In this document: positions 3,200-64,000 of the stretch, in pieces | How the letters are laid out: each line of letters opens with the position of its first letter | Numbering within the stretch: position 1 is the stretch's first letter | NCBI GenBank assembly: GCA_035717485.1 | Contig: DASTIQ010000044.1 | Location: forward strand, 3,791 to 67,790 | Reading direction: 5' to 3' | Origin: Thermoanaerobaculia bacterium | Lineage (GTDB): Bacteria; Acidobacteriota; Thermoanaerobaculia; UBA5066; DATFVB01 | DNA: 64,000 bases | Position numbers and translations under genes: made by a program | Notes under the pieces: model-generated | What the model was told of the DNA's origin: nothing | Seen by the model: the letters and a program-made list of their open reading frames with translations, nothing else | Database searches by the model: none

Positions 3200-3248
3200 T
3201 CCCGGCAGGGCCGGAACGCGGCTAAGATTCCGCGAGACCGACGAGCGC

Positions 3249-3365
3249 ATGCTGACTGTGGGAACCCGCCTCGCACCTGGCGATCCGCCTTCGCTCCTTC
3301 GGAGCCGGAAGCCTCGCCGAAGCCTTGGCGAAGGCGGGTTCGGCGCGACGACGGGTTTGCCATGA
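3249..3365 (+). other. 38-codon leader ORF (MLTVGTRLAPGDPPSLLRSRKPRRSLGEGGFGATTGLP) resembling a decayed kinase 5-prime end; its TGA overlaps the kinase-1 ATG (ATGA)
   Basis: ATG at 3249, stop 3363-3365 overlapping ATG 3362. Contains GC-rich inverted repeat CCGCCTTCGC (3285-3294) / GCGAAGGCGG (3328-3337). A homologous element precedes kinase 4. Confidence 0.4.
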
Positions 3366-42474: not shown

Positions 42475-42519
42475 ATGCCGGCCGGAGGTCGCCGGGTAAC
42501 TTCCCTCTCGGAGGCACTC

Positions 42520-44343
42520 ATGGCCACGATCGATCCGGATCTCCCCGTCAAGGACCTCCTCGAGCGATTGCCGGAAATCCGGCCGGTGCTCGCGGCCTTC
42601 GACATCGATACCTGCTGCGGGGGACAGCATCCGCTGAAAGAGGCGTGCATCGCCCGGGGCGTCCCGCTCGAGGAGGTCCTCCGAGAGATCGGCCACATCC
42701 TTCCGGAGCCCGCCGGCGGCAGAACGCTCCGGGCCGTCCCCGCGCCGGGGGGCGATCTCGTCATCCCCGCGATGTCGATCCGGGAGATCGTCCGGCGGTT
42801 CCCGTCGACCGCGGCCGTGCTCGAGAAGCACGGGCTCGGCGACTGCGGGGGAGAGGACGGGCCCGACGAGCCGCTCGGGTGGTTCGCCACGGTCCACCGC
42901 ATCGCCCTCGGCCCGCTGATGGCCGACGTCAACGCCGCCGCGGCGCGCGACGGCCGCAAAGCTCCGGCGGCTTCCACGCCGAAGGCTCCGCCCCGTCCGT
43001 TCTCACCCGAGTTCATCGTCGGTTCGCTCGTCCTGACGCTGACTCTGGGCGCCACCACCGGGATGATCAACCTCCTCCGGATCGCGGCGGGGGGAGACGT
43101 GCCGTTCTCCCATCGCCAGATGCACGCGCACACGCAGATCCTCGGATTCGCGGCACTTTTCCTCATGGGGATCGCGTTTCACGCGCTCCCGCGCATCTCG
43201 GGAGTCGGCGGCGGTCCGCCCCGCTCCTCGAAGGCGACGTTCTGGCTGATGGCGGGCGGCGTGATCCTTCGGAACTTCGGGCAGCCGTTCAACCTCGCGC
43301 CGATCGGGCGAATCGCATCGCTGCTGTCGGGCGTGGCGGAGCTGGCGGCGGGCTGCCTCTTCGCGATCTTCGTCGCGGACCTGATTCGTCGCGCTCCGGC
43401 CGGCAAATACGGGAAGAAGGATCCTTTCCTCGTCCTGCTCGGATTCGGGACGACGTTCTTCCTGGCGGCCCTCGTCGTGAATGCCGCCCAGAGCGTCTGG
43501 CTCGCCGGACACCTCGAGACCGCGCTGCCGGCGGCGCTGGTCGACCCGTTCTACTTCGTCGCGCTGTACGGATTCCTGCTGGGGTGGGTGTTCGCCTTCG
43601 CGCACCGCGTCGTCGCTCTCTTCCTGGGCCTCGAGGCGCCGGGACCGAACCCGGCCCGCGCCGCGCTCGTTCTCCAGACGCTCGGCGTCGCGACGTTCCT
43701 CGCCGCCGGGATCCCCGGCCTTTCGAATCCGGCCGCCGCGCTCCTGCGGGACGCGGGAATGGCGGGCGTGGCCCTCGCCGCCATCGTCTTCGTCGCCGGA
43801 GCGAAACTCCTCGGCCGCCCGAAGCTTCCCGCGCTCGCTCCTCCCGGCAATCCGCTGTTCGCCATCCGGGCGGCGTTCGTCTGCCTGATGCTCTGGGCGG
43901 TCCTGGAGCTCGGCGCGATCGTCGTCGCCCGGACCACCGTGTTCCCGGCCCAGAACCTCTGGTGGGCGGATGCGGCGCGCCACGTCTTCACGATCGGGTT
44001 TCTGACGCTGATCATCGTGGGGATGAGCCTCCGGATCCTCCCGGTGTTCTCCGGAAAGACGCTCTGGTCGCCGAAGATGGCGTACGCCACGTACGCGCTG
44101 ATCCTGGCGGGGGTGGCGCTGCGGCTCCTCCAGTACCCGGCCGCGTTCCACGCGAAGCTCTACGAAGTCGGGTCCTGGATGGGCGTCTTCGTCGTGGGCG
44201 GTCTCGTCCTGTTCGCGGTCAACCTCGTCCGGACGATGCGCGCCCGGCCTCCGGCGCGCTCGACGCTTCCGGTCGCGCCCCCGGCGACCCCGGCCGCCTC
44301 CCCGGCGCCGTCGCGGTTCGTTTCCCGGCTGCCGGTCCGATGA
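42520..44343 (+). CDS. DUF1858-like redox domain fused to an NnrS family haem-copper membrane protein
   Basis: N-terminal about 70 aa LPVKDLLERLPEIRPVLAAFDIDTCCGG (DUF1858/ScdA-N-like), then a polytopic His-containing membrane domain typical of NnrS. Confidence 0.65.
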   Translation: MATIDPDLPVKDLLERLPEIRPVLAAFDIDTCCGGQHPLKEACIARGVPLEEVLREIGHILPEPAGGRTLRAVPAPGGDLVIPAMSIREIVRRFPSTAAVLEKHGLGDCGGEDGPDEPLGWFATVHRIALGPLMADVNAAAARDGRKAPAASTPKAPPRPFSPEFIVGSLVLTLTLGATTGMINLLRIAAGGDVPFSHRQMHAHTQILGFAALFLMGIAFHALPRISGVGGGPPRSSKATFWLMAGGVILRNFGQPFNLAPIGRIASLLSGVAELAAGCLFAIFVADLIRRAPAGKYGKKDPFLVLLGFGTTFFLAALVVNAAQSVWLAGHLETALPAALVDPFYFVALYGFLLGWVFAFAHRVVALFLGLEAPGPNPARAALVLQTLGVATFLAAGIPGLSNPAAALLRDAGMAGVALAAIVFVAGAKLLGRPKLPALAPPGNPLFAIRAAFVCLMLWAVLELGAIVVARTTVFPAQNLWWADAARHVFTIGFLTLIIVGMSLRILPVFSGKTLWSPKMAYATYALILAGVALRLLQYPAAFHAKLYEVGSWMGVFVVGGLVLFAVNLVRTMRARPPARSTLPVAPPATPAASPAPSRFVSRLPVR

Positions 44344-49936: not shown

Positions 49937-50035
49937 TCGTGGTCCTCCCGGGACCAATGACTCTTATGATGCATTTGAGCTATTCCCTGCGCCCCGATCC
50001 GGCAGGAGGATGGGCCCAAGAACAGGAGAGGTGAA

Positions 50036-51442
50036 ATGGAGAGAAACCACCGGCGAATCCTCGTGGCTCTTCCCCTGGGAATGGCGATATTCCTCGCCCT
50101 GGGGGCCCCGCGGCAGGCGGGCGCGGTCCCCGTCTTCTCCCGGAAATACCAGACTTCGTGCCAGACCTGCCATGCGATCTTTCCGAAACTGAACCCCTTC
50201 GGCGAAGCCTTCCGCTTGAACGGATACCGGATGCCGATGGAAACGCCGGAGCTGGTCAAGCAGCCCCCGGTGTCGCTCGGCTCCGAGGCGTATGAGCGGA
50301 TCTGGCCGGCGATGGTCTATCCGAGCGACCTGCCGTCGTTCGTGCCGCTCGCGATCAACGTCAAGATGGCCGACATCTACGCTTCGAGCCACGACGACAG
50401 CGGCAAAACGATCACGCACAACGACTTCCAGTTCCCGCAGGAAGCAAACCTCTTCTCGGCCGGCACTCTCGGATCGCATTTCAGCTTCTTCGGCGAGGTG
50501 ACGTACGCGGAGAGACCCGACGGCGGCACGGACGTCGAGATCGAGCACGCGCGGCTCGACCTGGATTCGGCGTTCGGGCCGGAGCATCTCTTCAACTTCA
50601 AGATCGGCAAGTTCGCGCCCGACCTCTACGACGGCTTCCAGGAAATGTGGCTGATGACCGACAACGGCGTCGACTCGCTCTTCGCCTTCAGCCCGATCGG
50701 GATCCACGGCGGGACCGGACTCTCCGAGGAAGGGCCCGGCGTCAGCCTGCCGGACCGGATGCGCGCGATCGAGATGTACGGCGTGGCCGCGCATCGGTTC
50801 TTCTACACGATCGGCTACGGGAGTCCGATCGGGCCGGGCGGCCCGAACGACACGTTCGGGAGCAGCAGCCGGAAGGACGTCTACGCCCGGATGGACTACA
50901 AGTTCGGCGGGATGGGGCTCGACGGCGACACGACGGGGGTCACGCTGCCCCCGGAGAACTGGCGCGAGCATTCCCTCCGCATCGGCGTCCTCGGCTACTA
51001 CGGCGACGGCTCTCAGGCCGACCCCTTCGACATCACGGACGAGGAGGGGAACGCGTTCAAGATGCGCGACACCCATTACGGGAGGATCGGCGCCTACGCG
51101 TCCCTCTACGTCGGCGACCTGAACCTCTTCGGCGTCGCGCTCCACGGGACCGACAAGCTCCAGCTCAGCGACCCCGACACGCTGACCGAGATCAGCACGA
51201 CCACGCGGACGTACGACGCGTGGTTCGCCCAGGCGGACTACGTCATCGTGCCGCCGTTCCAGCTCTCGCTCCGCTACGAGAACCTCCGGGTCGCCGATCC
51301 CGTCACGCCGACGATCAAGACCCTGAACGCGAACGCGAGCTTCCTGATCCGGGCCAACATCAAGGCCATGATCGAATACAACCGGGACCTCCGCGATTCC
51401 GAGAATTACACGCTCGCGACGGTCCTCCGATTCGCTTATTGA
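50036..51442 (+). CDS. Cyc2-like fused monohaem cytochrome c / outer-membrane beta-barrel (porin) protein
   Basis: Signal peptide, then a single CQTCH haem motif followed by PKL within 12 residues. About 420 aa of alternating amphipathic beta-strand-like sequence ending in an aromatic C-terminus (...LRFAY). Confidence 0.65.
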   Translation: MERNHRRILVALPLGMAIFLALGAPRQAGAVPVFSRKYQTSCQTCHAIFPKLNPFGEAFRLNGYRMPMETPELVKQPPVSLGSEAYERIWPAMVYPSDLPSFVPLAINVKMADIYASSHDDSGKTITHNDFQFPQEANLFSAGTLGSHFSFFGEVTYAERPDGGTDVEIEHARLDLDSAFGPEHLFNFKIGKFAPDLYDGFQEMWLMTDNGVDSLFAFSPIGIHGGTGLSEEGPGVSLPDRMRAIEMYGVAAHRFFYTIGYGSPIGPGGPNDTFGSSSRKDVYARMDYKFGGMGLDGDTTGVTLPPENWREHSLRIGVLGYYGDGSQADPFDITDEEGNAFKMRDTHYGRIGAYASLYVGDLNLFGVALHGTDKLQLSDPDTLTEISTTTRTYDAWFAQADYVIVPPFQLSLRYENLRVADPVTPTIKTLNANASFLIRANIKAMIEYNRDLRDSENYTLATVLRFAY

Positions 51443-51456
51443 AGGAGAAAGGAACC

Positions 51457-52038
51457 ATGAAGAAGATCCTGATCGCCCTGATCGTCGCCGCTTCGTCGGC
51501 GCTCCCCGCGGCCGCCGGAGACATCCACGGCAAAGTGACCTGCAAGGGCTCCTCGACGTGCGCCGACACGGTCGTCTACGTCGCCGCGATCCCCGGCAAG
51601 ACCTTCCCCGCGCCGGCGGCGCACGCGAAGATGAACCAGCTCAACATGAAGTTCGTCCCGCGAATTCTCCCCGTTCTCGAAGGCACCACCGTCGACTTCC
51701 TGAACTCCGACGCCGTGCTGCACAACGTCTTCACCCCGGACGCTTGCGCGGACAAGTTCAACCTCGGCACCTGGCCGAAGGGAGAGACGAAGACCTACAC
51801 GTTCAAGAAGGAATGCGCAGCGGCCCTGCTCTGCAAAGTGCACCCGGAGATGGAGGCGTATGTCGTCGCCGTTCCGACGCCGTACTATGCGCAGGCCAAG
51901 GCCGACGGCAGCTACCAGATCGCCGACGTGCCCGACGGGAGCTACACGCTGAAAGTCTGGCATCCGCGGCTCAAGGGCAAGGAAAAGCCGGTGAAGGTCG
52001 CGGGAGCGACGGAAGCGGACTTCGAGATCGCCCGCTGA
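51457..52038 (+). CDS. periplasmic type-1 copper (amicyanin/pseudoazurin-like cupredoxin) protein
   Basis: AAGGAGAAAGG RBS, signal peptide MKKILIALIVAASSALPAAA. Candidate copper ligands His in VLHNVF and C-x2-H-x2-M (CKVHPEM). Confidence 0.6.
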   Translation: MKKILIALIVAASSALPAAAGDIHGKVTCKGSSTCADTVVYVAAIPGKTFPAPAAHAKMNQLNMKFVPRILPVLEGTTVDFLNSDAVLHNVFTPDACADKFNLGTWPKGETKTYTFKKECAAALLCKVHPEMEAYVVAVPTPYYAQAKADGSYQIADVPDGSYTLKVWHPRLKGKEKPVKVAGATEADFEIAR

Positions 52039-53047: not shown

Positions 53048-53734
53048 GTGCCCCCACGGCCTCCGATTCCTTTCGAGGCGATCCCGATCCTCGCGTCGCT
53101 CCGGCCCGAGGACCGCGACGCTCTCGCGCCGCTGTGCGAGATGCGCGGCTACGAGAAGGGGGAGACGATCTTCCGGGAGGGGGATCCCGGCGAGCGCATC
53201 CACTTCGTGTTCATCGGCCGCGTCAAGATCGTCAAGGCCGGCCCCGGGCGAGACCTGATCCTGGAGATCCTCGGCCCGGGGGAGCCGGTCGGCGCGGTCG
53301 CGGCGTTCGAGCGCAAGGCCTTTCCGGCGACGGCCGTCGCGCTCGAAGCCTGCGGGGTCCTCTCGATCCCGGAGCGACAGTTCTTCGAGCTCCTGGAGAA
53401 GCGCCCGGAGATCACCCGCCGGCTCTTCGCCGGGCTGACGATGCGGCTCATGAACCTCAACCGCCATCTCGCCGACATGCTGGGCTCGGTCGAGTATCGC
53501 GCCGCGCGGCTCTTCCTGACGCTCGCCGCGAAGATGGGCCAGAAGCGCGACGGCGCGGTCTTCATTCCGGTCGCGCTCTCGCGCCAGGAGCTCGCCGACC
53601 TGATCGGGACCACGATCGAAACGGCCATCCGCGTGATGAGCCGGTGGCAGAAGGACGGGCTCGTCGAGACGGAGAAGAACGGCTTCCTTCTTCTCCGGCC
53701 GGCGGCGCTTCGCGAGATCAGCTCGGTGGCGTGA
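53048..53734 (+). CDS. Crp/Fnr family transcriptional regulator lacking an N-terminal Cys cluster (Dnr/NnrR-like)
   Basis: cNMP-binding-like domain (GETIFREGDPGERIHFV...) and C-terminal HTH (SRQELADLIGTTIETAIRVMS). No FNR-type Cys motif. Confidence 0.75.
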   Translation: MPPRPPIPFEAIPILASLRPEDRDALAPLCEMRGYEKGETIFREGDPGERIHFVFIGRVKIVKAGPGRDLILEILGPGEPVGAVAAFERKAFPATAVALEACGVLSIPERQFFELLEKRPEITRRLFAGLTMRLMNLNRHLADMLGSVEYRAARLFLTLAAKMGQKRDGAVFIPVALSRQELADLIGTTIETAIRVMSRWQKDGLVETEKNGFLLLRPAALREISSVA

Positions 53735-54248
53735 GGGCGCGGGCCAGCCGGCGGGCGCGGGCGCGCTTGCCCGCGACGGAGACGGCGAGATCGGCCAGCG
53801 TGCGCCGTTCGAGCTGGCGATCGAGAAGCGCCCGCGCCCTCTTCCAGACCGGGTGAGCGGGACACGGCGTCTCGTCCGTGCACTCGGAGAACCCCAGGAG
53901 ACACCGGCCGCCGAGTCCGAATCCGTCGATCGCCCGCACGACCTGGAGCACCGTGATCCGATCCGCGGGCCGCGAGAGCACGATGCCGCCCAGCGGGCCG
54001 CGGCGCGTCTTCACGATGCCGGAATTTCGCAGCTGCTGGACGATCTGGGCGAGCGCGGTCGTGGAAATTCCGACGTCGTTCGCGAGCTCTTCCTGGACGA
54101 CCATCCTTCCCGGATTGGCGTGTTCCGCCGCCGCGAGCCGCTCCGCCGCCCGCAGCGCGTGCTGGCAGGTCCGGGAATAGAGAAGGGGGCGCCCCTCGGC
54201 GGCCGCGTCGTAACGAGGTCGGGCGGGCATGCCGCCGAACCATAGCAC
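53718..54248 (-). CDS. Rrf2 family transcriptional regulator with three-Cys Fe-S cluster motif (IscR/NsrR-like)
   Basis: HTH LANDVGISTTALAQIVQQLRNSGIV and C-x7-C-x5-C (CLLGFSECTDETPC). Alternative start at 54230. Its 3-prime end overlaps the crp gene convergently. Confidence 0.75.
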   Translation of the reverse strand: MLWFGGMPARPRYDAAAEGRPLLYSRTCQHALRAAERLAAAEHANPGRMVVQEELANDVGISTTALAQIVQQLRNSGIVKTRRGPLGGIVLSRPADRITVLQVVRAIDGFGLGGRCLLGFSECTDETPCPAHPVWKRARALLDRQLERRTLADLAVSVAGKRARARRLARALTPPS

Positions 54249-54254
54249 GGCTTG

Positions 54255-54275
54255 ACTCCCGTCCGGCCCGGGAGT
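54255..54275. promoter_or_regulatory. inverted repeat ACTCCCG-N7-CGGGAGT in the divergent rrf2 / multihaem-cytochrome intergenic region (candidate Rrf2 operator)
   Basis: 7-bp perfect arms. A second palindrome ATCAAttcTTGAT lies at 54283-54295, and TTGAC at 54252-54256. Confidence 0.35.
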
Positions 54276-54305
54276 ACCGTTTCATCAATTCTTGATGGAG
54301 AACTC

Positions 54306-56366
54306 ATGAATAGGCCGTGCGTCCCGCGCACCGCGGAAGAGAGGGCCGCCGGATGGGGAGGCGCGCTCGCCCGTTTCACGGGCGGAACGCTCGCCTATCT
54401 CCTGCTGAGCGGCCTCGCGATCCGGTTCGTTTCGTTTTCGGCGCTCGCGGAATGGACGGTGATCGTCCACAGCGCGGCGGGGGTCCTCTCGTTCGCGCCG
54501 CTCGGCGTGTACCTCTTCCGGCACTGGCGCGCCTACCGCGCCGACGCCCTCACCCCGGCAAAGGTGCTCGGGTGGTTCGCGTTCGCGGCCGTCGCCGCGG
54601 CGGAGATGTCGGGATTCTGGGCGGCGGGCCTCGCGCTCTTTTCCCGCCGGGTGCCCGGCTGGGTCCGGGACGTCCACCTGATCCCGTCGATCGCGGTCGG
54701 CGTCTTCGCCGTCGCTCACCTCTGGCCGATCTGGAAGCGCAAGGCCCTCTCGCCCGACCTCGCCCGCCGGGCGCGGGCGCTCCGCGAGGGGTACCTCGCG
54801 TCGACGGTCCTCGTTTCCGCCGCGCTCCTGCTCGCCGCATTCCCGGCGACGCTCGCCCAGCGGTCGCCGCGCCGCGCCGGATCCTTCCCGAAGGATTATC
54901 GGATGCCCTTCGGGAAGAACCGTCCCTTCGCGCCCAGCCTCGCGCGCACCGAGCACAACGGAGCGCTGGCGCCCGAGGCGCTCTCGGGATCCGCGTCGTG
55001 CGGCTCGTCGGGGTGCCATGAGTCGATCTATCGGGAGTGGTCCGTGTCCGCCCACCGATGGGCGGCGCTCGACCCCGCGTTCCAGCGCGTCCAGGAGGAG
55101 ATGGCTCGCCAGAACGGGCCGGAGTCGACCCGTTACTGCGGCGGCTGCCACGATCCCATCTCCCTCTTCTCGGGGTCGAAGACCGTCTTCAAGGCGGACC
55201 TGACGAGCGATGCCGGCATGACCGAGGGGGTCTCGTGCCTCTCCTGCCATTCCGTCGGAAAAGCGGACGTGCAGGGAAACGCGAACTACGTCGTCCATCC
55301 GCCGGAGCGCTATCTCTTCGAGACGTCCCGCTCGCGCGCGGCGCGCCTCGTCTCCGATTTCCTGATCCGCGCCTACCCGAAGCACCACGTCGCGTCCCTC
55401 GAGAAGCGCCTGTTCAAGACGCCGGAGTACTGCGCCGCGTGCCACAAGCAGTTCGTCGACCAGGAGGTCAACAACTTCGGGTGGGTACAGCTTCAGAACC
55501 AGTACGACAACTGGCGAAAGAGCAAGTGGAACCACCCGGGCGATCCGCGCCGCACGATCGAGTGCCGCGAGTGCCACATGCCTCTCCTCGGCGGCCCCGA
55601 GCCCGCTTCGGGGGACACGGCGGACTACAACCGCACGGCGGCCGACGGACAGCACCGCAGCCACCGATTCCTCGGCGCGAACCAGTACATGCCCGCGCTC
55701 CTGAAGCTCCCGGGGGGCGAACGGCAGGTGGAACTCGTCGACCGCTGGCTGCACGGCTCGTACCCCGTCCCGGAGATCGCGTCGAAATGGGCCGCCGGCC
55801 CGGCGGTGTCGCTCGCCCTCGACGTCCCCTCGCACGCCGACGCGGGCCGCCCGCTGCGGGTGCGGGCGATCATCACGTCGAACAAGGTGGGGCACGACTA
55901 TCCCACGGGTCCGCTCGACCTGATCCAGTCGTGGATCGAGATCGACGTCCGCGATGCCTCCGGGGCCGTCGTCTTCACGTCGGGGCGTCCGGACGCGAAG
56001 AAGATGATCCCGCCCGGTTCCTTCCTCTTCAAGGCGGAGCCCGTCGACCGCTACGGCAATCTCATCGATCGCCACAACCTCTGGGAGATGGTCGGCGTCC
56101 GGTACCGGCGCAGCCTCTTCCCGGGATACTCCGACGTGGCGGAGTACACCTTCACGTGCCCCTCCTCGGGTGGCACGCCCGCGCCCGTTCGCGACCTCGT
56201 GGTTCCCGACCCGCCGGTCGGCGCCGTCTCGATCGAGGCGATCCTCCACTACCGCAAGCTCGACCAGTTCCTCGTCGATTTCCTTTTCCCGGGCAAGGGG
56301 CTCTCGGCGCCGATCACCGATCTCGCCCGGGCCCGGGCGGTCGTCCACATCGTTCCCGCCGCATGA
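54306..56366 (+). CDS. membrane-anchored multihaem cytochrome c (N-terminal four-helix His-containing domain plus periplasmic domain with four CxxCH and one CxxxxCH)
   Basis: GGAG then ATG 54306. TM helices with His (IVHSAAGVL, AVAHLWPIW). Haem motifs CGGCH, CLSCH, CAACH, CRECH and CGSSGCH. Confidence 0.7.
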   Translation: MNRPCVPRTAEERAAGWGGALARFTGGTLAYLLLSGLAIRFVSFSALAEWTVIVHSAAGVLSFAPLGVYLFRHWRAYRADALTPAKVLGWFAFAAVAAAEMSGFWAAGLALFSRRVPGWVRDVHLIPSIAVGVFAVAHLWPIWKRKALSPDLARRARALREGYLASTVLVSAALLLAAFPATLAQRSPRRAGSFPKDYRMPFGKNRPFAPSLARTEHNGALAPEALSGSASCGSSGCHESIYREWSVSAHRWAALDPAFQRVQEEMARQNGPESTRYCGGCHDPISLFSGSKTVFKADLTSDAGMTEGVSCLSCHSVGKADVQGNANYVVHPPERYLFETSRSRAARLVSDFLIRAYPKHHVASLEKRLFKTPEYCAACHKQFVDQEVNNFGWVQLQNQYDNWRKSKWNHPGDPRRTIECRECHMPLLGGPEPASGDTADYNRTAADGQHRSHRFLGANQYMPALLKLPGGERQVELVDRWLHGSYPVPEIASKWAAGPAVSLALDVPSHADAGRPLRVRAIITSNKVGHDYPTGPLDLIQSWIEIDVRDASGAVVFTSGRPDAKKMIPPGSFLFKAEPVDRYGNLIDRHNLWEMVGVRYRRSLFPGYSDVAEYTFTCPSSGGTPAPVRDLVVPDPPVGAVSIEAILHYRKLDQFLVDFLFPGKGLSAPITDLARARAVVHIVPAA

Positions 56367-58879
56367 GCGGCTCGCGCCTCCGACGCTTCACTCACCCGCG
56401 CGCCGTGATCGCCGCGGCGCTGGCGGTGGTCGCGGCGGCGGCGGCGCTCTACGCGACGCACGGAGGAGAGGAAGCCCCCTACCGCCCCGGAGAGGCCGTC
56501 GAAGGAATCACCGACGTCAATCGCCACCAGGTCTCCGGCGCGGACTGGGGGATCCGCTGGACCGACGTCGCCGCGAAGTCCGGCCTCGCCTTCCGGCACT
56601 TTTCGGCGGGGGCGCGGTCGACGCAGCTTCCCGAGGACATGGGCTCGGGGCTCGCCTTCGGCGACTACGACGGAGACGGGTGGTGGGACCTCTTCGTGGC
56701 CGACACGACCGGACCGCTGACGATGAGCGCGAGCGAGCTCGCGAGCGCTCGCGGCGGCTGCCGTCTCTACCACAACCTCGGAGGCGTGTTCACGGACGTG
56801 ACCGAGGAGGCGGGTCTGGGAGGGCTCCGCGGGAACTATCTCGGCGCGGCGTGGGGCGATTACGACAACGACGGCCGACCCGACCTCGTCGTGACCTCCT
56901 TCGGGGGGATCCGTCTCTTCCACAACCGCGGAGACGGGACGTTCGAGGACGTGTCGCACGCGTCGGGCGTCGACGCGTTCCGCGGCTTCTGGACCGGCGC
57001 GACATGGGGAGATGCCGACGGGGACGGGCGTCTCGATCTCTACGTGTGCGGTTACGTCGACTACCGTTTCGACCCCGCCGATGCGGGGCGATCGTCGAAA
57101 TTCGGCGCCGCCGACAGCCCTTTCACCATCAACCCTTCGTCGTATCCGCCGATCGCGAACCTGTACTTCCACAACGAGGGAGGGGGCCGGTTCCGGGAGA
57201 TGGCCGCCGAGGCCGGAATCTCCGACCCGGAGGGACGCAGCCTGTCGGCGACGTTCGCCGATTTCGACAATGACGGGCGGTCCGATCTCTACGTCGCCAA
57301 CGACGTGTCCGAAGGGGCGCTCTACGTCAACGCGGGCGGCGGCCTGTTCGCCGAACGGGGGCACGACGCGCACGTCGCCGACTACCGCGGCGCGATGGGG
57401 ATCGCGGTCGGCGACGTCGACGGCGACGGCGCGCTCGACATGTTCGTCACCCACTGGATCGCGGAAGCGAACGCGCTTTACCTCAACCGGCTCTTCGCCG
57501 GGCCCTCGCGGCGGCTCGACTTCGAGGACGCGGCGGAGCGTTTCGGGCTCGGCGAGATCTCGACCGACGACATCGCCTGGGGCGCCGCCTTCCTCGACGT
57601 CGACGGCGACGGTTTCCCGGATCTCGCCGTGGCGAACGGCTCGACGTTCGAGGACGCCGCCGACCGTCGCCGGCTCGTCCCGATGCCGATGCGACTGTTC
57701 CGGAACCTCGGCGGCCGGAGGTTCACCGACGTCGCTCCGGCTTCCGGCGAGGTCTGGACCACCCCACGGGTGCATCGCGGCCTCGCCGTGGCGGACGTGG
57801 ACGGAGACCTCCGGCAGGAGATCGCCGTGGTCGTCCACGGCGGAGAATTGATCCTCCTGAAGGCGGCCGGGGGGCCCGCGAACCACCGAATCGCGTTTCG
57901 ACTGGAGGGAACGCGGTCGAACCGGTCGGCGTACGGCGCCCGGGTCACGCTGCTCGCCGCGGGGAGGACGCAGATTCGCGAGATCGGCGCGGGGTCTTCC
58001 TATCTTTCCCAGAACGCCCCGGAGGCCGTCTTCGGCCTCGGCGCGGCGGCGAGCGCCGACCGGGTCACGGTCCGGTGGCCGTCCGGCGCCGCGCAGACGT
58101 TCACGGACCTCGCCGCCGATCGCGCGTACCGGCTCAAGGAAGGGCGGGGGGCGCCCGAGGCGATCCCGGGAGGGCGGGGCGGCGAACTGGCCTTCTGGGA
58201 CGCCTACGCGCGGGCGCGGGACCGCGCGGGCCGCGGAGATGCGGTCGGCGCGATCGCGGGCTACCGCGAGGCGCTGGCCGTGAACCCGAGGCACGAGGAC
58301 AGCCTCTATGCGCTCGGGAACCTCCTCCTCGAGAGCGGCGACCGGTCCGGCGCCCGAAAAGCGTTCGAGACGCTCGCGGCGTTCGCCCCGCGGAGCGCCC
58401 GAATGCACGGGGCGCTCGGCGACCTGCTTGCCGAAGAGGCCGCCGGGAGCGGCGCCGGGTTCGACGCGGCAAGAACGCATTACCGCGCCGCCGGCGAGTT
58501 GAACGGCGAAGAGACGGGCTGGGTACTCCGGACGGGGGAGATTTCGCTCGCCGAGGGGAAGACCCGGGACGCGGCGGTCGCGTTCCGGAACGTCCTCTCG
58601 ACGAATCCCCGCTCGTTCGAAGCGCTCTATCTCTCCGGTTTTCTCGCGTACCGCCGGGGCGATCTCACCGAAGCCGGGCGCCTTCATGCGCACGCCTTCG
58701 CGGCGATCCCCCTTCCGGCCGGGCCGGCGTCGGCCGAGGGGGACGCGCGCCGCGCGGGATCCGCGCTTCCGCGGCGGGGCGTCTTCGCCGCGCACTGGAG
58801 ACGCCTGGCATCGGGTCCGATGACGATGGAAGAAGCCTACGCGGACCTGTCGCGGCGGATCGGGAAACCTTCCCGCTGA
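56363..58879 (+). CDS. FG-GAP repeat / ASPIC-UnbV (CRTAC1-like) protein with C-terminal TPR repeats
   Basis: ATG overlaps the upstream stop (ATGA). Repeated DxDGDG.D...V motifs (GDYDGDGWWDLFV, GDYDNDGRPDLVV, GDADGDGRLDLYV...), then RVTLLAAGRTQIREIGAGSSYLSQ ASPIC region and TPR-like tail. Confidence 0.75.
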   Translation: MSGSRLRRFTHPRAVIAAALAVVAAAAALYATHGGEEAPYRPGEAVEGITDVNRHQVSGADWGIRWTDVAAKSGLAFRHFSAGARSTQLPEDMGSGLAFGDYDGDGWWDLFVADTTGPLTMSASELASARGGCRLYHNLGGVFTDVTEEAGLGGLRGNYLGAAWGDYDNDGRPDLVVTSFGGIRLFHNRGDGTFEDVSHASGVDAFRGFWTGATWGDADGDGRLDLYVCGYVDYRFDPADAGRSSKFGAADSPFTINPSSYPPIANLYFHNEGGGRFREMAAEAGISDPEGRSLSATFADFDNDGRSDLYVANDVSEGALYVNAGGGLFAERGHDAHVADYRGAMGIAVGDVDGDGALDMFVTHWIAEANALYLNRLFAGPSRRLDFEDAAERFGLGEISTDDIAWGAAFLDVDGDGFPDLAVANGSTFEDAADRRRLVPMPMRLFRNLGGRRFTDVAPASGEVWTTPRVHRGLAVADVDGDLRQEIAVVVHGGELILLKAAGGPANHRIAFRLEGTRSNRSAYGARVTLLAAGRTQIREIGAGSSYLSQNAPEAVFGLGAAASADRVTVRWPSGAAQTFTDLAADRAYRLKEGRGAPEAIPGGRGGELAFWDAYARARDRAGRGDAVGAIAGYREALAVNPRHEDSLYALGNLLLESGDRSGARKAFETLAAFAPRSARMHGALGDLLAEEAAGSGAGFDAARTHYRAAGELNGEETGWVLRTGEISLAEGKTRDAAVAFRNVLSTNPRSFEALYLSGFLAYRRGDLTEAGRLHAHAFAAIPLPAGPASAEGDARRAGSALPRRGVFAAHWRRLASGPMTMEEAYADLSRRIGKPSR

Positions 58880-58906: not shown

Positions 58907-59208
58907 CTACCGGTGGGCGGGCGCCGCGCCGAGTTCGTCGGCCCGCACGCGGCCGAGGCATTCCTGACCGCACCCGCGGTTCTCGGGCCAGAGCGAGCAC
59001 TCCGCGACCCGGAGCGGCAGGCGGTCGAACGCCGAGCCGATCGCGATCGAAAGCGCGTCGACCCGAACGCCCGCCGGCCCCCCCGTGCGCGGGCAGAGGA
59101 GCGAGCGGGTCCCTCGAAATCGCCGGTAGGCGCCCACGGCGACCGGCAGGGCGACCAGCAGCAGCCCCGCGCCGACGACTCCCACGATCTCCCAGGCCGA
59201 ACCGTTCA
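58907..59208 (-). CDS. small membrane protein with Cys-rich C-terminal part (hypothetical)
   Basis: ATG 59208 (MNGSAWEIVGVVGAGLLLVALPVAVGAY...), 100 aa. Confidence 0.35.
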
Positions 59209-59258
59209 TGACCGCCTCCTTCGCTCCGCGGCTCGCGCCGCGATCTCGAGGTCCGACT

Positions 59259-59855
59259 TCAGCGCTTCGGGTGCTCGCTCTCCGCCGGCGCGGAACCGGC
59301 ATCGAACAGCGACTCCGCCGCATGGACGTACTCGACGTAGGCGCGGACGTACGCGCGTCCCGCCGCCACGCTCTCCGACGCATGCCGTCGCGCTTCGCGG
59401 ACGCGGGCGAACCGTTCGCGGAGGAAGGCGGCGTCGCGGTCCGTGACGAGGCGGACGAGATCGTCGGCCGACCCGGTCTCGAGCGATCGGTCCGCGGCCC
59501 GCACCGCGGGAGAGACTTCCGTCCCGGCTGCCTTGACGCCCGTGAACGGCTCGCCTTCGGAGGCGCGATGCAGGCGCACGACGGTCTCGAAAAACGAACG
59601 ATCGGCCAGGGCCTCGGCGGCCGGCCCGAGTCGCCGCACGACGGATACTTCGTCGAATGCGCGCCGGACCTCCGCCTCGCTCGCCGGAGCCACCCACTTC
59701 AGCACCGGATCGACCGCGCCCGACTCGAGCGCGGCGCGCGCGTCGGCGACGACGGGACCATCCAGCGTGTCGCAGTGGGCGGCGGCGGGACGGGCGGTCG
59801 CGACGGCCGCGAGGAAGAACGCCGCGATCGCGACGCGGAGCGGGGAGCGGAGCAT
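59259..59855 (-). CDS. secreted hypothetical protein
   Basis: GAAGGAGGGAG RBS then ATG 59855, signal peptide MLRSPLRVAIAAFFLAAVATARPAAA. The track ORF 59259..61163 is an artefactual 634-aa extension. Confidence 0.5.
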   Translation of the reverse strand: MLRSPLRVAIAAFFLAAVATARPAAAHCDTLDGPVVADARAALESGAVDPVLKWVAPASEAEVRRAFDEVSVVRRLGPAAEALADRSFFETVVRLHRASEGEPFTGVKAAGTEVSPAVRAADRSLETGSADDLVRLVTDRDAAFLRERFARVREARRHASESVAAGRAYVRAYVEYVHAAESLFDAGSAPAESEHPKR

Positions 59856-59869
59856 CGGCTCCCTCCTTC

Positions 59870-61096
59870 TCATGCCGCGCGCGGCTTCCGCTTCCACGCG
59901 ATGTAGGGACGCGCGAGCGTCCGCATCGCGGCGAGCTTGGCTTCGTAGAACCGGGTCCCGAGCGTCGGCGGAACGAGGTCGGCGGCCTCTTCCGGCTGCA
60001 CGACGAGAGAAACCTCGATCGGAAGGATGCCGACGGGAAGGCCGGTTCGCCGGCATGCCTCGTACAGGTACGCGAAGACCTCTTTCATCGCTGCCGGTTC
60101 CGGCGACGGGACGTCCTGCATCTCGCTGTCGACGGTCGGCCGGAAGATGCAGACCGTGGGGAACGCGCCGGCGTCGACGATCCGGTCGATGCCGCGTTTC
60201 GTCGCTTCGATCGGCTCGACGCCCGCGATGATCTCTCCCGAAACCCGGCCGGCTCCGAGCTTCTTTGCCGCGTATTCCATCGCGTCGAAGAAGCCCTGCT
60301 GCCCGACGGTGTCGGCCTTGCCCGGGCAGAGCCGGGCGAACCATTCGGGGTCCTCGAACTCGTAGCAGAAGGAGAAGTGGTCGGCACCGGCGTCGATGAG
60401 CGCGTCGTACTCCCCGAACTTGCGCTTCGGGACCGGGTGGGCCTGGACGCCGATGAATCCGCCGACGCGCTCCCGAACGGCCTTCACGAACGGCTCGCAT
60501 TGCCGCAGGCCGTGGATCGGCTCGAGCTTGTCGACGTCCTCGAAGTGGTAGCCGGTGTTGAAGTGCGTGAAGATCGAACCCGATTCGTCGCGGGCCGCGA
60601 GGGCGACCTCGACGACGTCCTCCACCTTCTTGCGCGACTGCTCGACGACGCCGACGTTCTTTCCGGTCGTGCAGAACTTGCAGGCCCGGGAGGGGGTCGA
60701 CGCCCAGTAGAGGCAGGAGTTCGAGACGTAGACGCCGAGGTAGTTCCCCTGGAGAACGCCGATGCGGGACATCTCGACGCCGGTCTCCGTCCGGCGGGAG
60801 TACCACCCGGGCTCCGGAGGGATCTCGACGGGGTAATGCATCCCCGAGCGGACGTCCTCGACGAAGTAGCTCCCGGCGCGCTGCAGGAGAAAAGGGGAAG
60901 CCTGTGCGAAAGGCTCGACGACGGGAGCGTTCATCCAGATGTTCTTCCGGGGCGACGGCAGGACGAGCTCGAGCCCCGACCCGAGGCCGGCGCGCGTCCG
61001 GGCGATCCGCCGGGCGTCCTCGTCGGTGTGGCACGACGGGTCGATCCGGACTCCCCGGCAGAAGAGTTCGATCTCGAGTTCCACGGGTGACAGCAT
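59870..61096 (-). CDS. Fe-S / radical-SAM-like TIM-barrel protein with noncanonical Cys motif (function unknown)
   Basis: GGGAGGGAAC RBS then ATG 61096. 408 aa, C-x10-C-x2-C (CLYWASTPSRACKFC), normal composition. Confidence 0.45.
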   Translation of the reverse strand: MLSPVELEIELFCRGVRIDPSCHTDEDARRIARTRAGLGSGLELVLPSPRKNIWMNAPVVEPFAQASPFLLQRAGSYFVEDVRSGMHYPVEIPPEPGWYSRRTETGVEMSRIGVLQGNYLGVYVSNSCLYWASTPSRACKFCTTGKNVGVVEQSRKKVEDVVEVALAARDESGSIFTHFNTGYHFEDVDKLEPIHGLRQCEPFVKAVRERVGGFIGVQAHPVPKRKFGEYDALIDAGADHFSFCYEFEDPEWFARLCPGKADTVGQQGFFDAMEYAAKKLGAGRVSGEIIAGVEPIEATKRGIDRIVDAGAFPTVCIFRPTVDSEMQDVPSPEPAAMKEVFAYLYEACRRTGLPVGILPIEVSLVVQPEEAADLVPPTLGTRFYEAKLAAMRTLARPYIAWKRKPRAA

Positions 61097-61149: not shown

Positions 61150-61206
61150 ATGATGCAAATCATCCAGAACGCCCGAAAAACCCGCGTTTCTTATGACGGA
61201 AATCAT
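61150..61206. promoter_or_regulatory. two FNR/Dnr-type boxes (aTGATgcaaATCAt at 61150-61163; aTGACggaaATCAt at 61193-61206) upstream of the nosZ-linked cytochrome gene
   Basis: Each matches TTGAT-N4-ATCAA at 8/10 positions. Box 2 is centred about 41 nt upstream of ATG 61241 and about 68 nt upstream of ATG 61268. Confidence 0.35.
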
Positions 61207-61267
61207 GGGGCGCCCGGCGGGGCCGCCCTACGCTCGCGGCATGAAACAGAACACGAGCGGAGGATGT

Positions 61268-62422
61268 ATGCGGAGAGCTTCCCGGACGATTCCCGCCGCC
61301 CTTCTGGCCGCGGCGCTCGGCGCCGCCGGCTGCGCGCGGAAGGCGGCCACGGCCGGACCGGGGTCCCTGACGCCCGCCTTCCTGGACGTGGCGGTCGCGA
61401 AGCGCCCGCCGGTCTCGCCGGCCACGATCGCGCGGGGCCGGACGGTCTACCTCGCCAATTGCGTCCAGTGCCACGGCGAGGACGGCGCGGGCGACGGCTT
61501 CGGCGCGCCGTTCCTGGTGCCGCCGCCGCGCGACTTCACGACCGCCGAGTTCAAGTTCCGGACGACGGCGGCGGGGGAACTCCCGACGGACGAAGACCTC
61601 TTCCGAACGATCTCGCGCGGCGCGTCCGGGACCGGGATGCCGCCGTGGGCCTACCTGCTCCCGGCGGAAGACCGCTGGGCGCTCGTCGACTACGTCAAGA
61701 CCTTCTCGCCGCGCTTCAACGGGGCCGCCGCGCGGACGATGGCGGCGATCCCGCCGCCGCCGTCCTCCGAGGACGCGGCCCGGGGAAAGCTCGTGTACCA
61801 GCAGATGCAGTGCGCGAAGTGCCACGGCGACGACGGGCGCGGCGACGGACCTTCGGCGCTGACGCTCCAGGATGCGAAGGGGCGGCACATCAACTCGCGC
61901 GACTTCACGACGCCCGGCGCCTTCCGAACCGGATGGACCGACCGGGAGATCGTCCGCACGTTCCAGACGGGGCTGAACGGCACCCCGATGCCTTCCTACG
62001 CCGGGCTGATGACGCCGCAGCAGGCCTACGACCTCGCCGCGTACGTGAGGAGCTTCGCCGGGCCGGGATCCGGCAACCAGAAGCGCCAGACCGCCCGCGG
62101 GATGGAGGGGGTCGGAGCGCCGTCGCGCGTGATCGAGCTCCGCGAGCACGCGTGGCGGTACGAGCCCGCCGAGATCCGCGTCCGGAGAGGCGAGGTCGTC
62201 CAGATCCGCTTCTCGGCGACCGACAACGGGCTGGGCGCCGGCCACGGCTTCGCGATCGACGGCTACGACCAGCAGGTGTTCATCAACGGCGCGATGGTCG
62301 GCTCGCCGCAGACGGTCACGTTCAAGATCGACGAGCCGGGGACCTACCGCTACTACTGCGCGACCCAGTGCAGCACGACGGAGCTCCATCCGAAGATGCA
62401 CGGAACGCTGATCGTCGAATGA
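61268..62422 (+). CDS. dihaem cytochrome c fused to a CuA-like cupredoxin domain (probable lipoprotein)
   Basis: GGAGGA then ATG 61268 (alternatives 61193, 61241). MRRASRTIPAALLAAALGAAGC lipobox-like signal. CVQCH and CAKCH haem motifs. C-terminal C-x3-C-x5-H-x2-M (CATQCSTTELHPKM) resembling CuA ligands. Confidence 0.65.
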   Translation: MRRASRTIPAALLAAALGAAGCARKAATAGPGSLTPAFLDVAVAKRPPVSPATIARGRTVYLANCVQCHGEDGAGDGFGAPFLVPPPRDFTTAEFKFRTTAAGELPTDEDLFRTISRGASGTGMPPWAYLLPAEDRWALVDYVKTFSPRFNGAAARTMAAIPPPPSSEDAARGKLVYQQMQCAKCHGDDGRGDGPSALTLQDAKGRHINSRDFTTPGAFRTGWTDREIVRTFQTGLNGTPMPSYAGLMTPQQAYDLAAYVRSFAGPGSGNQKRQTARGMEGVGAPSRVIELREHAWRYEPAEIRVRRGEVVQIRFSATDNGLGAGHGFAIDGYDQQVFINGAMVGSPQTVTFKIDEPGTYRYYCATQCSTTELHPKMHGTLIVE

Positions 62423-62450
62423 TCGATCGTCGAAAGGAAAGAGGAAGAAC

Positions 62451-64000
62451 ATGAATCGGAAATCCCTTCTCCTGGTCCTGGTGGCGGTCGCGGGGACGAT
62501 CGCCTTCATGCGGACGGTCGGATGCGGCTCGGCGCGGACGGCCCGATCCCTCGCGGCGGACAAGGTCTACGTCCCGCCCGGCGAGCACGACAAGTACTAC
62601 GCCTTCCTCTCCGGAGGGCAGAGCGGCTCGGTGTTCGTCGTCGGGATTCCCTCCTGCCGGCTCATCCGGGAAATCCCGGTCTTCGAGCCCCGGGCGGCGT
62701 ACGGCTACGCCGTCCACGACGGCGATCCGCGTCGGCAGCAGCTGATCGATACCGGCGGCCTCTGGGGCGACACGCATCACCCGGCGCTCTCCGAGACGAA
62801 CGGCGTGTACGACGGGCGCTATCTCTGGATCAACGACCTTTCGAACGCGCGGCTCGCCCGGGTCCGGCTCGACTACTTCGAAGCGGACAAGATCGTGAAG
62901 ATCCCGAATCTCCAGGGGGCCCACGGCATCGCCGTCGTCTCTCCCGATACGAAGTACATCGTGGTCAACGGCGAGTTCGAGCAGCCGACCGACGGGATGG
63001 TGACGAACCCGGCGCCGTACACGTCGGTCGTCGCCTTCGTCGAGCCGAACACGATGGAGGTCCGGTTCGAGGTCCGGGTACCCGGAAACATCGACATCGC
63101 CGACACGTCCAAGGACGGGCGCTATTCCTTCTCGACCGTCTACAACCTCGAGCAGGGGAAGGACATGGGCGGCATGATCCAGTTCGACCGCGACGCCGTC
63201 GCCGCGATCGACATTCCCCTGGCGGAGAAGAACGCGGCCGCCGGGAAGGGTCACGTCCGCAACGGCGTGCCGATCCTGGAGCCCTCGGAGAATCCGGGCG
63301 TCCTGACGCTCATCCCCGTCCCGAAGAACCCGCACGGCGTCAACGTCACGCCCGACGGGAAATACGCGATCGCCGCCGGCAAGCTCTCCCCGACCGTGAC
63401 GATCATCGACGCCCGCACGTTGAAGATCGTCGCGGAGCCCGAGGTCGGCCTCGGACCGCTCCACACGACGTTCGACGGCCGCGGCAACGCGTACACCTCG
63501 CTCTTCCTCGACAGCCAGGTCGTCAAGTGGAACATCGAGAAGGCGGTCAAGGGCGCGCCCGATTACATCGTCGACCGCATCAACGTCCATTACAACATCG
63601 GCCACCTCCAGGCGGTCGGAGGCGCGTCCATGAAGCCGGCGGGAGACTACCTGCTGGCCCTGAACAAGCTCTCCAAGGACCAGTACCTGCCGGTCGGCCC
63701 GGACATGCCCGAAGATCAGGAGCTGATCGACATCTCGGGCGAGAAGATGAAGATGCTCGCCTCGTTCCCGACTCCCCCCGAGCCGCACGACGCGGAGTTC
63801 ATCGCGGCGTCCGTGCTCTCTCCGAAGGTCAAGCAGGTCTTCACGCCGGCCCCCGACGCGGTCGCCGCCGGACAGGAGAGCGTCGTCCGGACGGGGCCCC
63901 ACGCCGTCACCGTCAACATGACGATGATCCGGAGCGCCTACACGCCCGACCACTTCGAGGTGAAGGAAGGCGACACCGTGACGTTCCGGCTGACGAACGT
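62451..64000 (+). CDS. nosZ: nitrous-oxide reductase, Sec-dependent (clade II-like), partial at window end
   Basis: AAGGAAAGAGGAAG RBS, Sec-type signal without RR (MNRKSLLLVLVAVAGTIAF). Beta-propeller region with conserved His, and the cupredoxin domain starting at HFEVKEGDTVTFRLTN at the window edge. Confidence 0.8.
   Translation, partial: MNRKSLLLVLVAVAGTIAFMRTVGCGSARTARSLAADKVYVPPGEHDKYYAFLSGGQSGSVFVVGIPSCRLIREIPVFEPRAAYGYAVHDGDPRRQQLIDTGGLWGDTHHPALSETNGVYDGRYLWINDLSNARLARVRLDYFEADKIVKIPNLQGAHGIAVVSPDTKYIVVNGEFEQPTDGMVTNPAPYTSVVAFVEPNTMEVRFEVRVPGNIDIADTSKDGRYSFSTVYNLEQGKDMGGMIQFDRDAVAAIDIPLAEKNAAAGKGHVRNGVPILEPSENPGVLTLIPVPKNPHGVNVTPDGKYAIAAGKLSPTVTIIDARTLKIVAEPEVGLGPLHTTFDGRGNAYTSLFLDSQVVKWNIEKAVKGAPDYIVDRINVHYNIGHLQAVGGASMKPAGDYLLALNKLSKDQYLPVGPDMPEDQELIDISGEKMKMLASFPTPPEPHDAEFIAASVLSPKVKQVFTPAPDAVAAGQESVVRTGPHAVTVNMTMIRSAYTPDHFEVKEGDTVTFRLTN

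Follow-up and report, generated by a model that had tools for sequence, protein, structure and literature searches.

Which electron-transfer system is encoded by a membrane-anchored multiheme cytochrome gene of a Thermoanaerobaculia bacterium, and how might it be regulated? The gene lies on a 64,000-nucleotide stretch of contig DASTIQ010000044.1 (the window, to which all coordinates refer), divergent from a gene for an Rrf2-family regulator. A first-pass annotation made from the sequence had described it as an ImcH-like quinol oxidase feeding extracellular electron transfer, with two intergenic palindromes as operators. The underlying sequence observation was largely correct, and the ImcH label and the operator claim were unsupported, both failing under the refuting conditions that the annotation itself had set. 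We consider it probable, with some reserve, that the gene encodes a bc-type fusion cytochrome forming, with a propeller protein encoded directly 3' of it, a module for electron transfer between quinone and periplasm, linked to Rrf2 in one Thermoanaerobaculia subclade. The features that carry this reading are as follows.

54306..56366, + strand: open reading frame of the fusion cytochrome, 686 aa, with a five-transmembrane (5-TM) His-bearing domain, a pentaheme c domain and a C-terminal beta-sandwich
54306..54860, + strand: membrane domain, residues 1-185, with helices at residues 17-39, 46-77, 84-112, 118-144 and 150-184
54468, 54522, 54675 and 54717, + strand: invariant membrane residues His55, His73, His124 and His138, from alignments of 20 and 23 sequences
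54999-55019, 55137-55151, 55236-55250, 55431-55445 and 55563-55577, + strand: heme c motifs CGSSGCH, CGGCH, CLSCH, CAACH and CRECH, from a regular-expression search of the translation
56363..58879, + strand: FG-GAP (7 repeats)/UnbV_ASPIC/TPR (CRTAC1-like) protein with an N-terminal signal or anchor, from Pfam

A five-helix membrane domain fused to a pentaheme domain

The cytochrome is 100% identical to an NCBI protein from a Thermoanaerobaculia metagenome-assembled genome, which is named only "multiheme c-type cytochrome." Pfam matched it to Cytochrome_C554 over residues 236 to 316 only, and an NCBIfam scan returned nothing above a cut-off. Homologues were compared in two alignments, one of 20 sequences and one of 23 sequences for the N-terminal domain. 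The polytopic, His-containing membrane domain and the periplasmic heme domain with four CxxCH motifs and one CxxxxCH motif, as first described, were both recovered, with five hydrophobic helices, four His and all of the motifs found.

Residues 1 to 190 form five hydrophobic helices according to two AlphaFold2 (AF2) models and hydropathy, and contain exactly four His (55, 73, 124 and 138). The AF2 model of the transmembrane (TM) domain alone has a predicted local distance difference test (pLDDT) score of 84.5. All four His are invariant in both alignments; TM2 carries the first pair (His55 and His73) and TM4 the second (His124 and His138). The topology is fixed because the c-heme domain must be periplasmic, and the K/R-rich stretches then face the predicted cytoplasm. 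Both TM2 and TM4 start at the outer side of the membrane and end at the inner side, which would place His55 and His124 close to the periplasm and His73 and His138 close to the cytoplasm. This layout is that expected of two bis-His b hemes stacked across the membrane.

When the N-terminal domains were scanned singly against Pfam, DUF4405 was touched by 17 of the 23 (best E value, 1.7e-3) and Ni_hydr_CYTB, the prokaryotic cytochrome b561 family, by 9 (best E value, 7.8e-4). A DUF4405 protein binds heme b experimentally, has four central His, and was proposed to be a transmembrane electron carrier (PMC11334425). The four central His on TM helices are thus shared with the class of DUF4405, MsrQ and prokaryotic cytochrome b561, whereas DUF4405 proteins are described with six TM helices and the fusion cytochrome has five. 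A profile of the TM domain, searched against 1.84 billion representatives, retrieved 442 clusters. Among the 150 matches listed, most start near the N terminus and many are short, looking like the same family or fragments of it, and no other architecture carrying the domain was evident among them. Since the profile yields only 442 clusters and those listed look like the family itself, the domain appears to be a separate, family-specific lineage, putatively of the diheme b type.

In the periplasmic part, the first heme motif is CGSSGCH (CX4CH) at residue 232, followed by CxxCH motifs at residues 278, 311, 376 and 420. All Cys and His of the five motifs are invariant in the 20 homologues, as are seven His outside the motifs (250, 361, 410, 450, 453, 530 and 590) and long blocks of the beta-sandwich, such as GNLIDRHNLWEMVGVRYRR. 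C618 is the sole conserved nonmotif Cys of the domain. The only match in the PDB was 5ZE8, the pentaheme cytochrome c552 of Thermochromatium tepidum (phmmer E value, 7.7e-4; Foldseek E value, 1e-4 on a low-confidence model), with 15% identity over 199 aligned columns; the remaining Foldseek matches of the full-length model were generic Ig-like sandwiches. The best curated model was ExtKL, which was touched weakly by all 20 members (best E value, 6.3e-7, far under the 250-bit cut-off). The periplasmic part is therefore best described as a pentaheme and beta-sandwich domain weakly related to c552 and ExtKL/MccSep.

This class combines five c hemes with a beta-sandwich and includes PtdA, to which no function is assigned, and the polysulfide reductase MccSep. 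There are also differences. In the literature consulted, no membrane b-type domain is described for c552, PtdA or MccSep/ExtKL, of which 5ZE8 and MccSep were crystallized, and the first motif of c552 is CX2CH, unlike the CX4CH found here. Moreover, MccSep has a Cys-ligated catalytic heme and a selenocysteine, whereas the cytochrome alignment, which was not compared with the MccSep sequence, has no evident equivalent. Together, the two halves make a link between membrane and periplasmic electron transfer plausible.

Relationship to ImcH, NapC/NirT and CbcL

The proposed similarity to NapC/NirT or ImcH was searched for with Pfam and NCBIfam in the protein and its 20 homologues, and none was found. 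Cytochrom_NNT did not match at E values up to 0.1, the NrfH model was touched by only 2 of the 20 members (E value, 0.18), and the name ImcH was absent among the 120 homologues listed. ImcH of Geobacter sulfurreducens (GSU3259) has three TM helices, with NapC/NirT-like similarity around TM3 and hemes 1 to 3, and binds seven hemes through one CX3CH and six CX2CH motifs, its homologues having five to nine CX2CH motifs (PMC6295460). It resembles the fusion cytochrome in that an N-terminal membrane anchor is followed by an atypical first heme motif (CX3CH in ImcH and CX4CH here). However, five TM helices with four invariant His and five hemes, in place of three helices and seven hemes, set the two apart as judged by the published description of ImcH. 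The NapC/NirT quinol dehydrogenases (CymA and NrfH), with a single N-terminal TM helix and a tetraheme domain, were also ruled out, since their family models were unmatched.

The architecture is nearer to that of CbcL of Geobacter sulfurreducens, which has nine CX2CH motifs within the N-terminal half of the protein and six HydC/FdnI-like TM helices within the C-terminal half (PMC6295460). Both proteins join, in one polypeptide, a His-bearing membrane domain of the diheme b type and a periplasmic multiheme c domain, and CbcL is presumed to exchange electrons between the quinone pool and the periplasm (PMC6295460). In contrast to CbcL, the fusion cytochrome has the reverse domain order, five TM helices, five hemes and an additional beta-sandwich, and its obligatory partner is the propeller protein and not other cytochromes. 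No significant match to FdnI/HydC-type models was obtained from the cytochrome sequence, and the resemblance to CbcL is thus one of principle, without significant homology. Membership in the CbcL/MtrH/MtoC group was rejected because these proteins carry a C-terminal HydC/FdnI-like domain of about six TM helices, and the membrane domain here is N-terminal and has five. The cytochrome is an uncharacterized, widely conserved bc-type fusion that lies outside the NapC/NirT, ImcH and CbcL families and belongs to no curated family.

A propeller protein is the constant partner of the cytochrome

In the window, the start of the gene directly downstream and the stop codon of the cytochrome overlap in an ATGA, which suggests translational coupling. 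The product of this downstream gene matched FG-GAP_3 in seven stretches (1.5e-45) and UnbV_ASPIC (9.3e-22) in Pfam, and its conserved residues are mainly Ca sites of the DxDxDG type. With each species represented by a single genome, a scan turned up relatives of the cytochrome in at least 582 genomes, and the neighborhoods of the 80 best loci were counted. An FG-GAP/ASPIC/TPR gene follows the cytochrome on the same strand in 78 of these 80 loci and in 78 of 78 assessable ones, as the sequence of the other two breaks off within 320 bp of that gene. The loci come from at least 8 phyla, under the record labels Acidobacteriota, Gemmatimonadota, Bacteroidota/Rhodothermales, KSB1, Calditrichaceae, Planctomycetota, Poribacteria, Krumholzibacteriia and Chloroflexota, with 48 to 57% identity between cytochromes of different phyla. 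Besides the partner, no gene family is common to more than 10 of the 80 loci, and the conserved unit is therefore the cytochrome-propeller pair. An entry role in extracellular electron transfer is not borne out by this pattern, the sole invariant partner being a periplasmic FG-GAP/ASPIC/TPR protein and not a porin-cytochrome conduit.

At one Gemmatimonadota locus (L048), two intervals (3-2447 and 2060-4258) hold a second protein with five CxxCH motifs and no 5-TM domain, followed by an ASPIC-like gene of its own. This paralogue is 28% identical to residues 237 to 621 of the query; the cytochrome-propeller pairing therefore also exists without the b-type anchor. A CRTAC1-like FG-GAP gene embedded among c-type heme genes, some with a c554 domain, has been described in nonanammox bacteria (PMC12758564). 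The partners in that system are homologues of HZS alpha and beta-gamma (hydrazine synthase-like), and no membrane b-type domain is described for it. We found no published description of the cytochrome-propeller pair in the literature on ASPIC/UnbV, CRTAC1, FG-GAP, DUF4405 and multiheme proteins, and none of a function for bacterial CRTAC1/ASPIC propeller proteins.

Promoters and palindromes of the intergenic region

As the decisive comparison for the palindromes, seven orthologous Rrf2-cytochrome intergenic regions (cytochrome identity, 71 to 88%) were aligned. The relevant features are the following.

53718..54230, - strand: Rrf2-family regulator with a probable leaderless ATG start at 54230; alternative GTG at 54248 (open reading frame 53718-54248)
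54239..54247, - strand: putative extended -10 element of Rrf2, TGCTATGGT; ATAGCAcG block conserved in the seven orthologues
54252..54280, + strand: putative sigma-70-type promoter of the cytochrome operon, with -35 TTGACT at 54252-54257, a 17-nt spacer and -10 TACCGT at 54275-54280
54255..54275, no strand: palindrome 1, ACTCCCG-N7-CGGGAGT, exact, in the -35/-10 spacer
54283..54297, no strand: palindrome 2, CATCAA-TTC-TTGATG, exact, straddling the predicted transcription start
54287..54300, + strand: conserved AATTCTTGA block and GGAG Shine-Dalgarno sequence; invariant alignment columns A66 A67 T68 T69 T72 G73 A74 G76

Invariant in all seven regions are CTTGAC (-35), TAnnnT exactly 17 nt further on (-10), AATTnnTGAnG, a purine-rich Shine-Dalgarno sequence and TCATGA at the cytochrome start; in the window, the ATG sits five bases past GGAG (54297-54300). 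The conserved blocks include AATTCTTGA and ATAGCACG. On the minus strand, the ATAGCAcG block reads TGnTAnnnT and is fixed 7 to 8 nt before the Rrf2 start codon in the seven orthologues. This pattern of elements suggests back-to-back promoters and a leaderless Rrf2 mRNA beginning at the ATG at 54230 rather than at the GTG at 54248. The intergenic region, given as 57 bp in the first-pass annotation, is then likelier to be 75 bp long; both palindromes reported in it are present.

Their proposed role as operators did not hold, as neither is conserved in the seven orthologous promoters and the type represented by palindrome 1 is common in the window. Palindrome 1 is missing from all six of the other promoters, and the spacer that contains it differs in every orthologue. 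It is one of 185 inverted repeats in the window (69% GC) with 7-bp arms and loops of up to 10 nt, and about 7.6% of 57-bp windows contain such a repeat. Two copies of its motif, at up to two mismatches, occur within the 64-kb window against 1.0 expected, the second being inside a coding region. As for palindrome 2, its left arm is not conserved, and its invariant part is only AATTnnTGAnG (54287-54297), which merges with the AATTCTTGA and Shine-Dalgarno block. Its class has nine start/loop combinations at about six distinct sites in 64 kb, a lower frequency that simply reflects the scarcity of AT-rich hexamers at 69% GC. No enrichment of the palindromes was seen elsewhere in the window, the alignment of the seven regions contains no conserved dyad, and a search for 12-mers that the cytochrome promoter has in common with the island's other intergenic regions gave nothing convincing. 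The cytochrome promoter has no canonical Fnr box, and the half-sites of palindrome 2 are wrongly oriented for one. As an operator candidate, the AATTCTTGA block, which is invariant and sits where transcription is predicted to start, would be better than either palindrome. We also observed that CTTGA is invariant at 54251-54255 and 54291-54295, 40 bp apart, in all seven promoters, within the -35 element and the AATTCTTGA block; this could be coincidence or could represent direct-repeat half-sites.

The divergent Rrf2 regulator

The divergent neighbor is an Rrf2 protein, as first proposed (Pfam E value, 4.4e-26 and 92 bits against a cut-off of 30; TIGR00738, 84.7 bits against 73.3), and the three Cys expected of an Fe-S type are present. 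The spacing first reported, C-x7-C-x5-C, had to be corrected to C-x6-C-x5-C-x2-H, a pattern that every one of the 11 Rrf2 copies found close to the module retains. The protein falls under every NCBIfam equivalog cut-off (IscR, NsrR, RirA and CymR), with 56.9 bits for IscR (cut-off, 207.55), 43.5 for NsrR (182) and 42 for RirA (193). It resembles NsrR and IscR in the Rrf2 fold, the three Cys, a divergent candidate target and the proximity of NnrS/ScdA genes, and its C-x2-H is as in IscR. It differs from them in the x6/x5 spacing of its Cys and in scores of 43 to 57 bits against equivalog cut-offs of 182 to 275. By eye, no NsrR- or IscR-like box was recognized in the intergenic region.

In eight of nine contigs of the Thermoanaerobaculia subclade with 71 to 88% identity, the Rrf2 and cytochrome genes are arranged divergently, and a divergent Rrf2 gene is independently present in a Gemmatimonadota locus (L076). 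Overall, an Rrf2 gene lies within 8 kb in 7 of the 80 loci. In L083 and L084, a small Cys4 membrane protein is encoded in its place. The window also encodes a second regulator, convergent with Rrf2, whose gene is kept beside Rrf2 and the cytochrome in L082, L083, L085, L094 and L096.

53048..53734, + strand: Crp/Fnr-family regulator, overlapping the 3' end of the Rrf2 gene (Pfam cNMP_binding, HTH_Crp_2 and Crp)
Cys4 single-TM protein: window 58907-59383 (- strand); L082 884-1159; L083 5657-5974; L094 2038-2337; L096 2070-2372; L030 13959-14267

The second line lists a small single-TM protein with four conserved Cys and no Pfam family that recurs beside the module. In the window, its gene is found downstream of that for the propeller protein; in L082, it sits between the Crp and Rrf2 genes, as it apparently does in L094 and L096, judging by position and size only.

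Denitrification and NO-stress genes near the module

The divergent arrangement had also been read as a redox- or nitric oxide (NO)-sensing switch. The NO/N-oxide context is plausible, since the window encodes NnrS, HPP, Crp/Fnr, cytochrome c-cupredoxin and nosZ; the part of the proposal that rested on the palindromes failed with their lack of conservation as operators. Among the Pfam matches are an HPP protein and the following genes.

42475..44343, + strand: ScdA_N-NnrS fusion of the NO-stress type, a single open reading frame with ScdA_N, DUF1858 and the NnrS membrane domain
61193..64000, + strand: diheme cytochrome c-cupredoxin (61193-62422) and nosZ from about 62442, running off the window

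Locus L083 has the same gene order as the island in the window, and the module appears to be placed inside a denitrification/NO-stress island in the Thermoanaerobaculia subclade. Within 8 kb in the 80 loci, we counted NnrS in 10, ScdA-hemerythrin in 7, DUF438-hemerythrin-PAS in 5 and Crp in 5 to 6; at least one NO-type gene is found in 19 of the 80, on either side of the module. By a rough estimate that ignores kinship, nnrS, with one to two copies per genome, is about 30-fold more frequent near the module than in a random neighborhood, and the NO link is therefore a lead and not a result. These recurrent neighbors point to NO or N-oxide metabolism as the substrate area.

Proposed mechanism and alternative explanations

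In the model that we favor, the four membrane His would bind two b hemes stacked across the membrane. The five c hemes would exchange electrons with the quinone pool (or the cytoplasmic face) on one side and with the propeller partner on the other, and both proteins would make up a single complex facing the periplasm. The likelier direction would be from quinol to the periplasm, so that the cytochrome would work like the CbcL-type quinol dehydrogenases without being akin to them. In the Thermoanaerobaculia lineage, the operon would be transcribed from the sigma-70-type promoter, and the divergent Fe-S Rrf2, perhaps together with the adjacent Crp/Fnr regulator, would probably control it within a response to N-oxides.

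Several observations weigh against this model. Heme b, the quinone site and the complex are all inferred, and the full-length AF2 model has pLDDT values below 50 over most of residues 186 to 460. Every Pfam match of the TM domain scores below the gathering score. For the TM-only AF2 model, Foldseek retrieved nothing significant from the PDB (best E value, 0.15); the top matches of the model include heme-binding helical bundles, but at E values of 0.15 or worse, and the TM profile retrieved only chance matches to imidazoleglycerol-phosphate dehydratase from PDB sequences. The partner has no conserved Cys, heme motif or evident redox cofactor, which leaves its need for electrons unexplained. On the regulatory side, a consensus promoter scanner does not call the cytochrome promoter, because its -10 element matches at only three of six positions, and the closest relatives, at 63 to 70% identity (L001 to L012), mostly lack Rrf2. 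About three quarters of the loci have no NO-type neighbor, and several of the positive ones share ancestry.

Other explanations of the cytochrome were considered in light of the same evidence. It is fairly unlikely, in our judgment, that the pentaheme domain is itself an enzyme in the style of MccSep or NrfA, with quinol driving the reduction of NO, nitrite, hydroxylamine or a sulfur compound and the propeller/TPR protein serving as an accessory or substrate-delivery subunit. The closest curated model, ExtKL, does correspond to MccSep, a five-heme enzyme with a c552-like fold and one catalytic heme; the sequence is very highly conserved between phyla, including long beta-sandwich blocks without variation such as GNLIDRHNLWEMVGVRYRR; and NO-stress genes recur nearby. 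However, the ExtKL similarity lies far under its cut-off, and the seven invariant nonmotif His suffice for five bis-His hemes, so that no open coordination site is evident. Nor is a conserved Cys or Sec like C239/U325 of MccSep evident in the alignment, which was not set against the MccSep sequence. Electron flow could also run in reverse, the complex oxidizing a periplasmic substrate and the b hemes carrying electrons inward to quinone, as in an FdnI-like redox loop. A stacked heme pair is the arrangement of quinone reductases of the FdnI/HyaC type, Ni_hydr_CYTB matches some members weakly, and TM4 carries two His 14 residues apart. FdnI also has two His 14 residues apart on one helix. We nevertheless hold reverse flow to be improbable, as the partner shows no enzyme domain or cofactor for an oxidizable substrate, and the neighbors are reductive (nosZ and electron carriers) or stress related. 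The least probable account, by now largely refuted, is that of an ImcH-like quinol oxidase of the NapC/NirT type that feeds extracellular electron transfer and is switched by Rrf2 at the two palindromes. It would fit a polytopic anchor followed by a multiheme c domain with an atypical first motif, the outer-membrane-like protein with a heme motif encoded 3 kb upstream, and the position of palindrome 2 across the predicted transcription start, which is a good one for a repressor. Against it stand the missing NapC/NirT signal, the five TM helices with four invariant His, the five hemes, the invariance of a periplasmic propeller with no outer-membrane conduit conserved alongside the cytochrome, the absence of palindrome 1, whose class occurs at chance frequency, from six orthologous promoters, and the unconserved left arm of palindrome 2.

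A separate question is whether Rrf2 acts on the cytochrome operon at all. It may be a mere neighbor that regulates itself or other genes of the island, with the cytochrome operon under Crp/Fnr control or constitutive. Rrf2 is missing beside the module in most genomes, including L001 to L012, the Cys4 protein takes its place in L083 and L084, and the intergenic region has no conserved dyad. On the other hand, the divergent arrangement is kept in eight of nine subclade contigs and arose again in the Gemmatimonadota locus L076, and 7 of the 80 loci have an Rrf2 gene no more than 8 kb away. We therefore regard the neighbor-only explanation as a real but minority possibility, and the Rrf2-linked bc-type module as the preferred one.

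A more specific proposal would be that the cytochrome and its CRTAC1-like propeller/TPR partner form an unrecognized quinone-linked periplasmic complex, widespread in soil and sediment phyla such as Acidobacteriota, Gemmatimonadota and Bacteroidota, that transforms NO or another N-oxide or defends against it. This would explain the recurrent siting beside NnrS, ScdA/YtfE, Dnr-like Crp, Fe-S Rrf2 and nosZ; we regard it as speculative and, on present evidence, unlikely. Which respiratory substrates a bacterium can use is set by membrane cytochromes that connect the quinone pool with redox partners in the periplasm. If the complex handles N-oxides, it would represent an unrecognized step of nitrogen cycling in soil phyla that are abundant and poorly cultured; even as an electron-transfer module and no more, it has a bc-type architecture that is new. 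The pair would also offer the first functional handle on bacterial CRTAC1-like proteins. The main interest of the locus is in the conserved gene pair and in the N-oxide neighborhood that recurs around it.

Other genes and sites of the island

Additional observations concern the surroundings of the module. ScdA_N is the N-terminal domain of an iron-center repair protein, and its fusion to NnrS joins two types of NO-stress protein. In another Thermoanaerobaculia genome (L006, 1718-3241), a 507-aa protein with a NosL domain is encoded directly 5' of the module, a further link to nos genes.

The sequence ATGATGCAWWT occurs twice in the window (61150-61163 and 49966-49976) against 0.23 expected, both times in intergenic regions within the denitrification island. 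One copy is a perfect palindrome, ATGAT-GCAA-ATCAT, that agrees with the Fnr/Dnr box at 12 of 14 positions and lies between a divergent gene for a 408-aa protein (start at 61096, - strand) and the cytochrome c-cupredoxin/nosZ operon. The other copy lies 60 nt 5' of the gene for the outer-membrane-like protein with a heme motif. Both are candidate sites for the adjacent Crp/Fnr regulator.

The outer-membrane-like protein (50036-51442, + strand; 468 aa) has a signal peptide, one N-terminal CxxCH motif (SCQTCH) and a C-terminal RFAY like that of an outer-membrane beta-barrel, and no match in Pfam or NCBIfam. Between its gene and a gene for a diheme cytochrome c lies one for a secreted protein of about 187 aa (51477-52038, + strand) with a motif resembling that of type 1 copper proteins (His ... 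CKVHPEM) and no Pfam match. The 408-aa protein (59870-61096, - strand), also without a Pfam match, contains C-x11-C-x2-C and recurs near the module in L016, L019, L035, L045, L082 and L083; in every case within the subclade, its gene separates the module from the cytochrome c-cupredoxin/nosZ genes.

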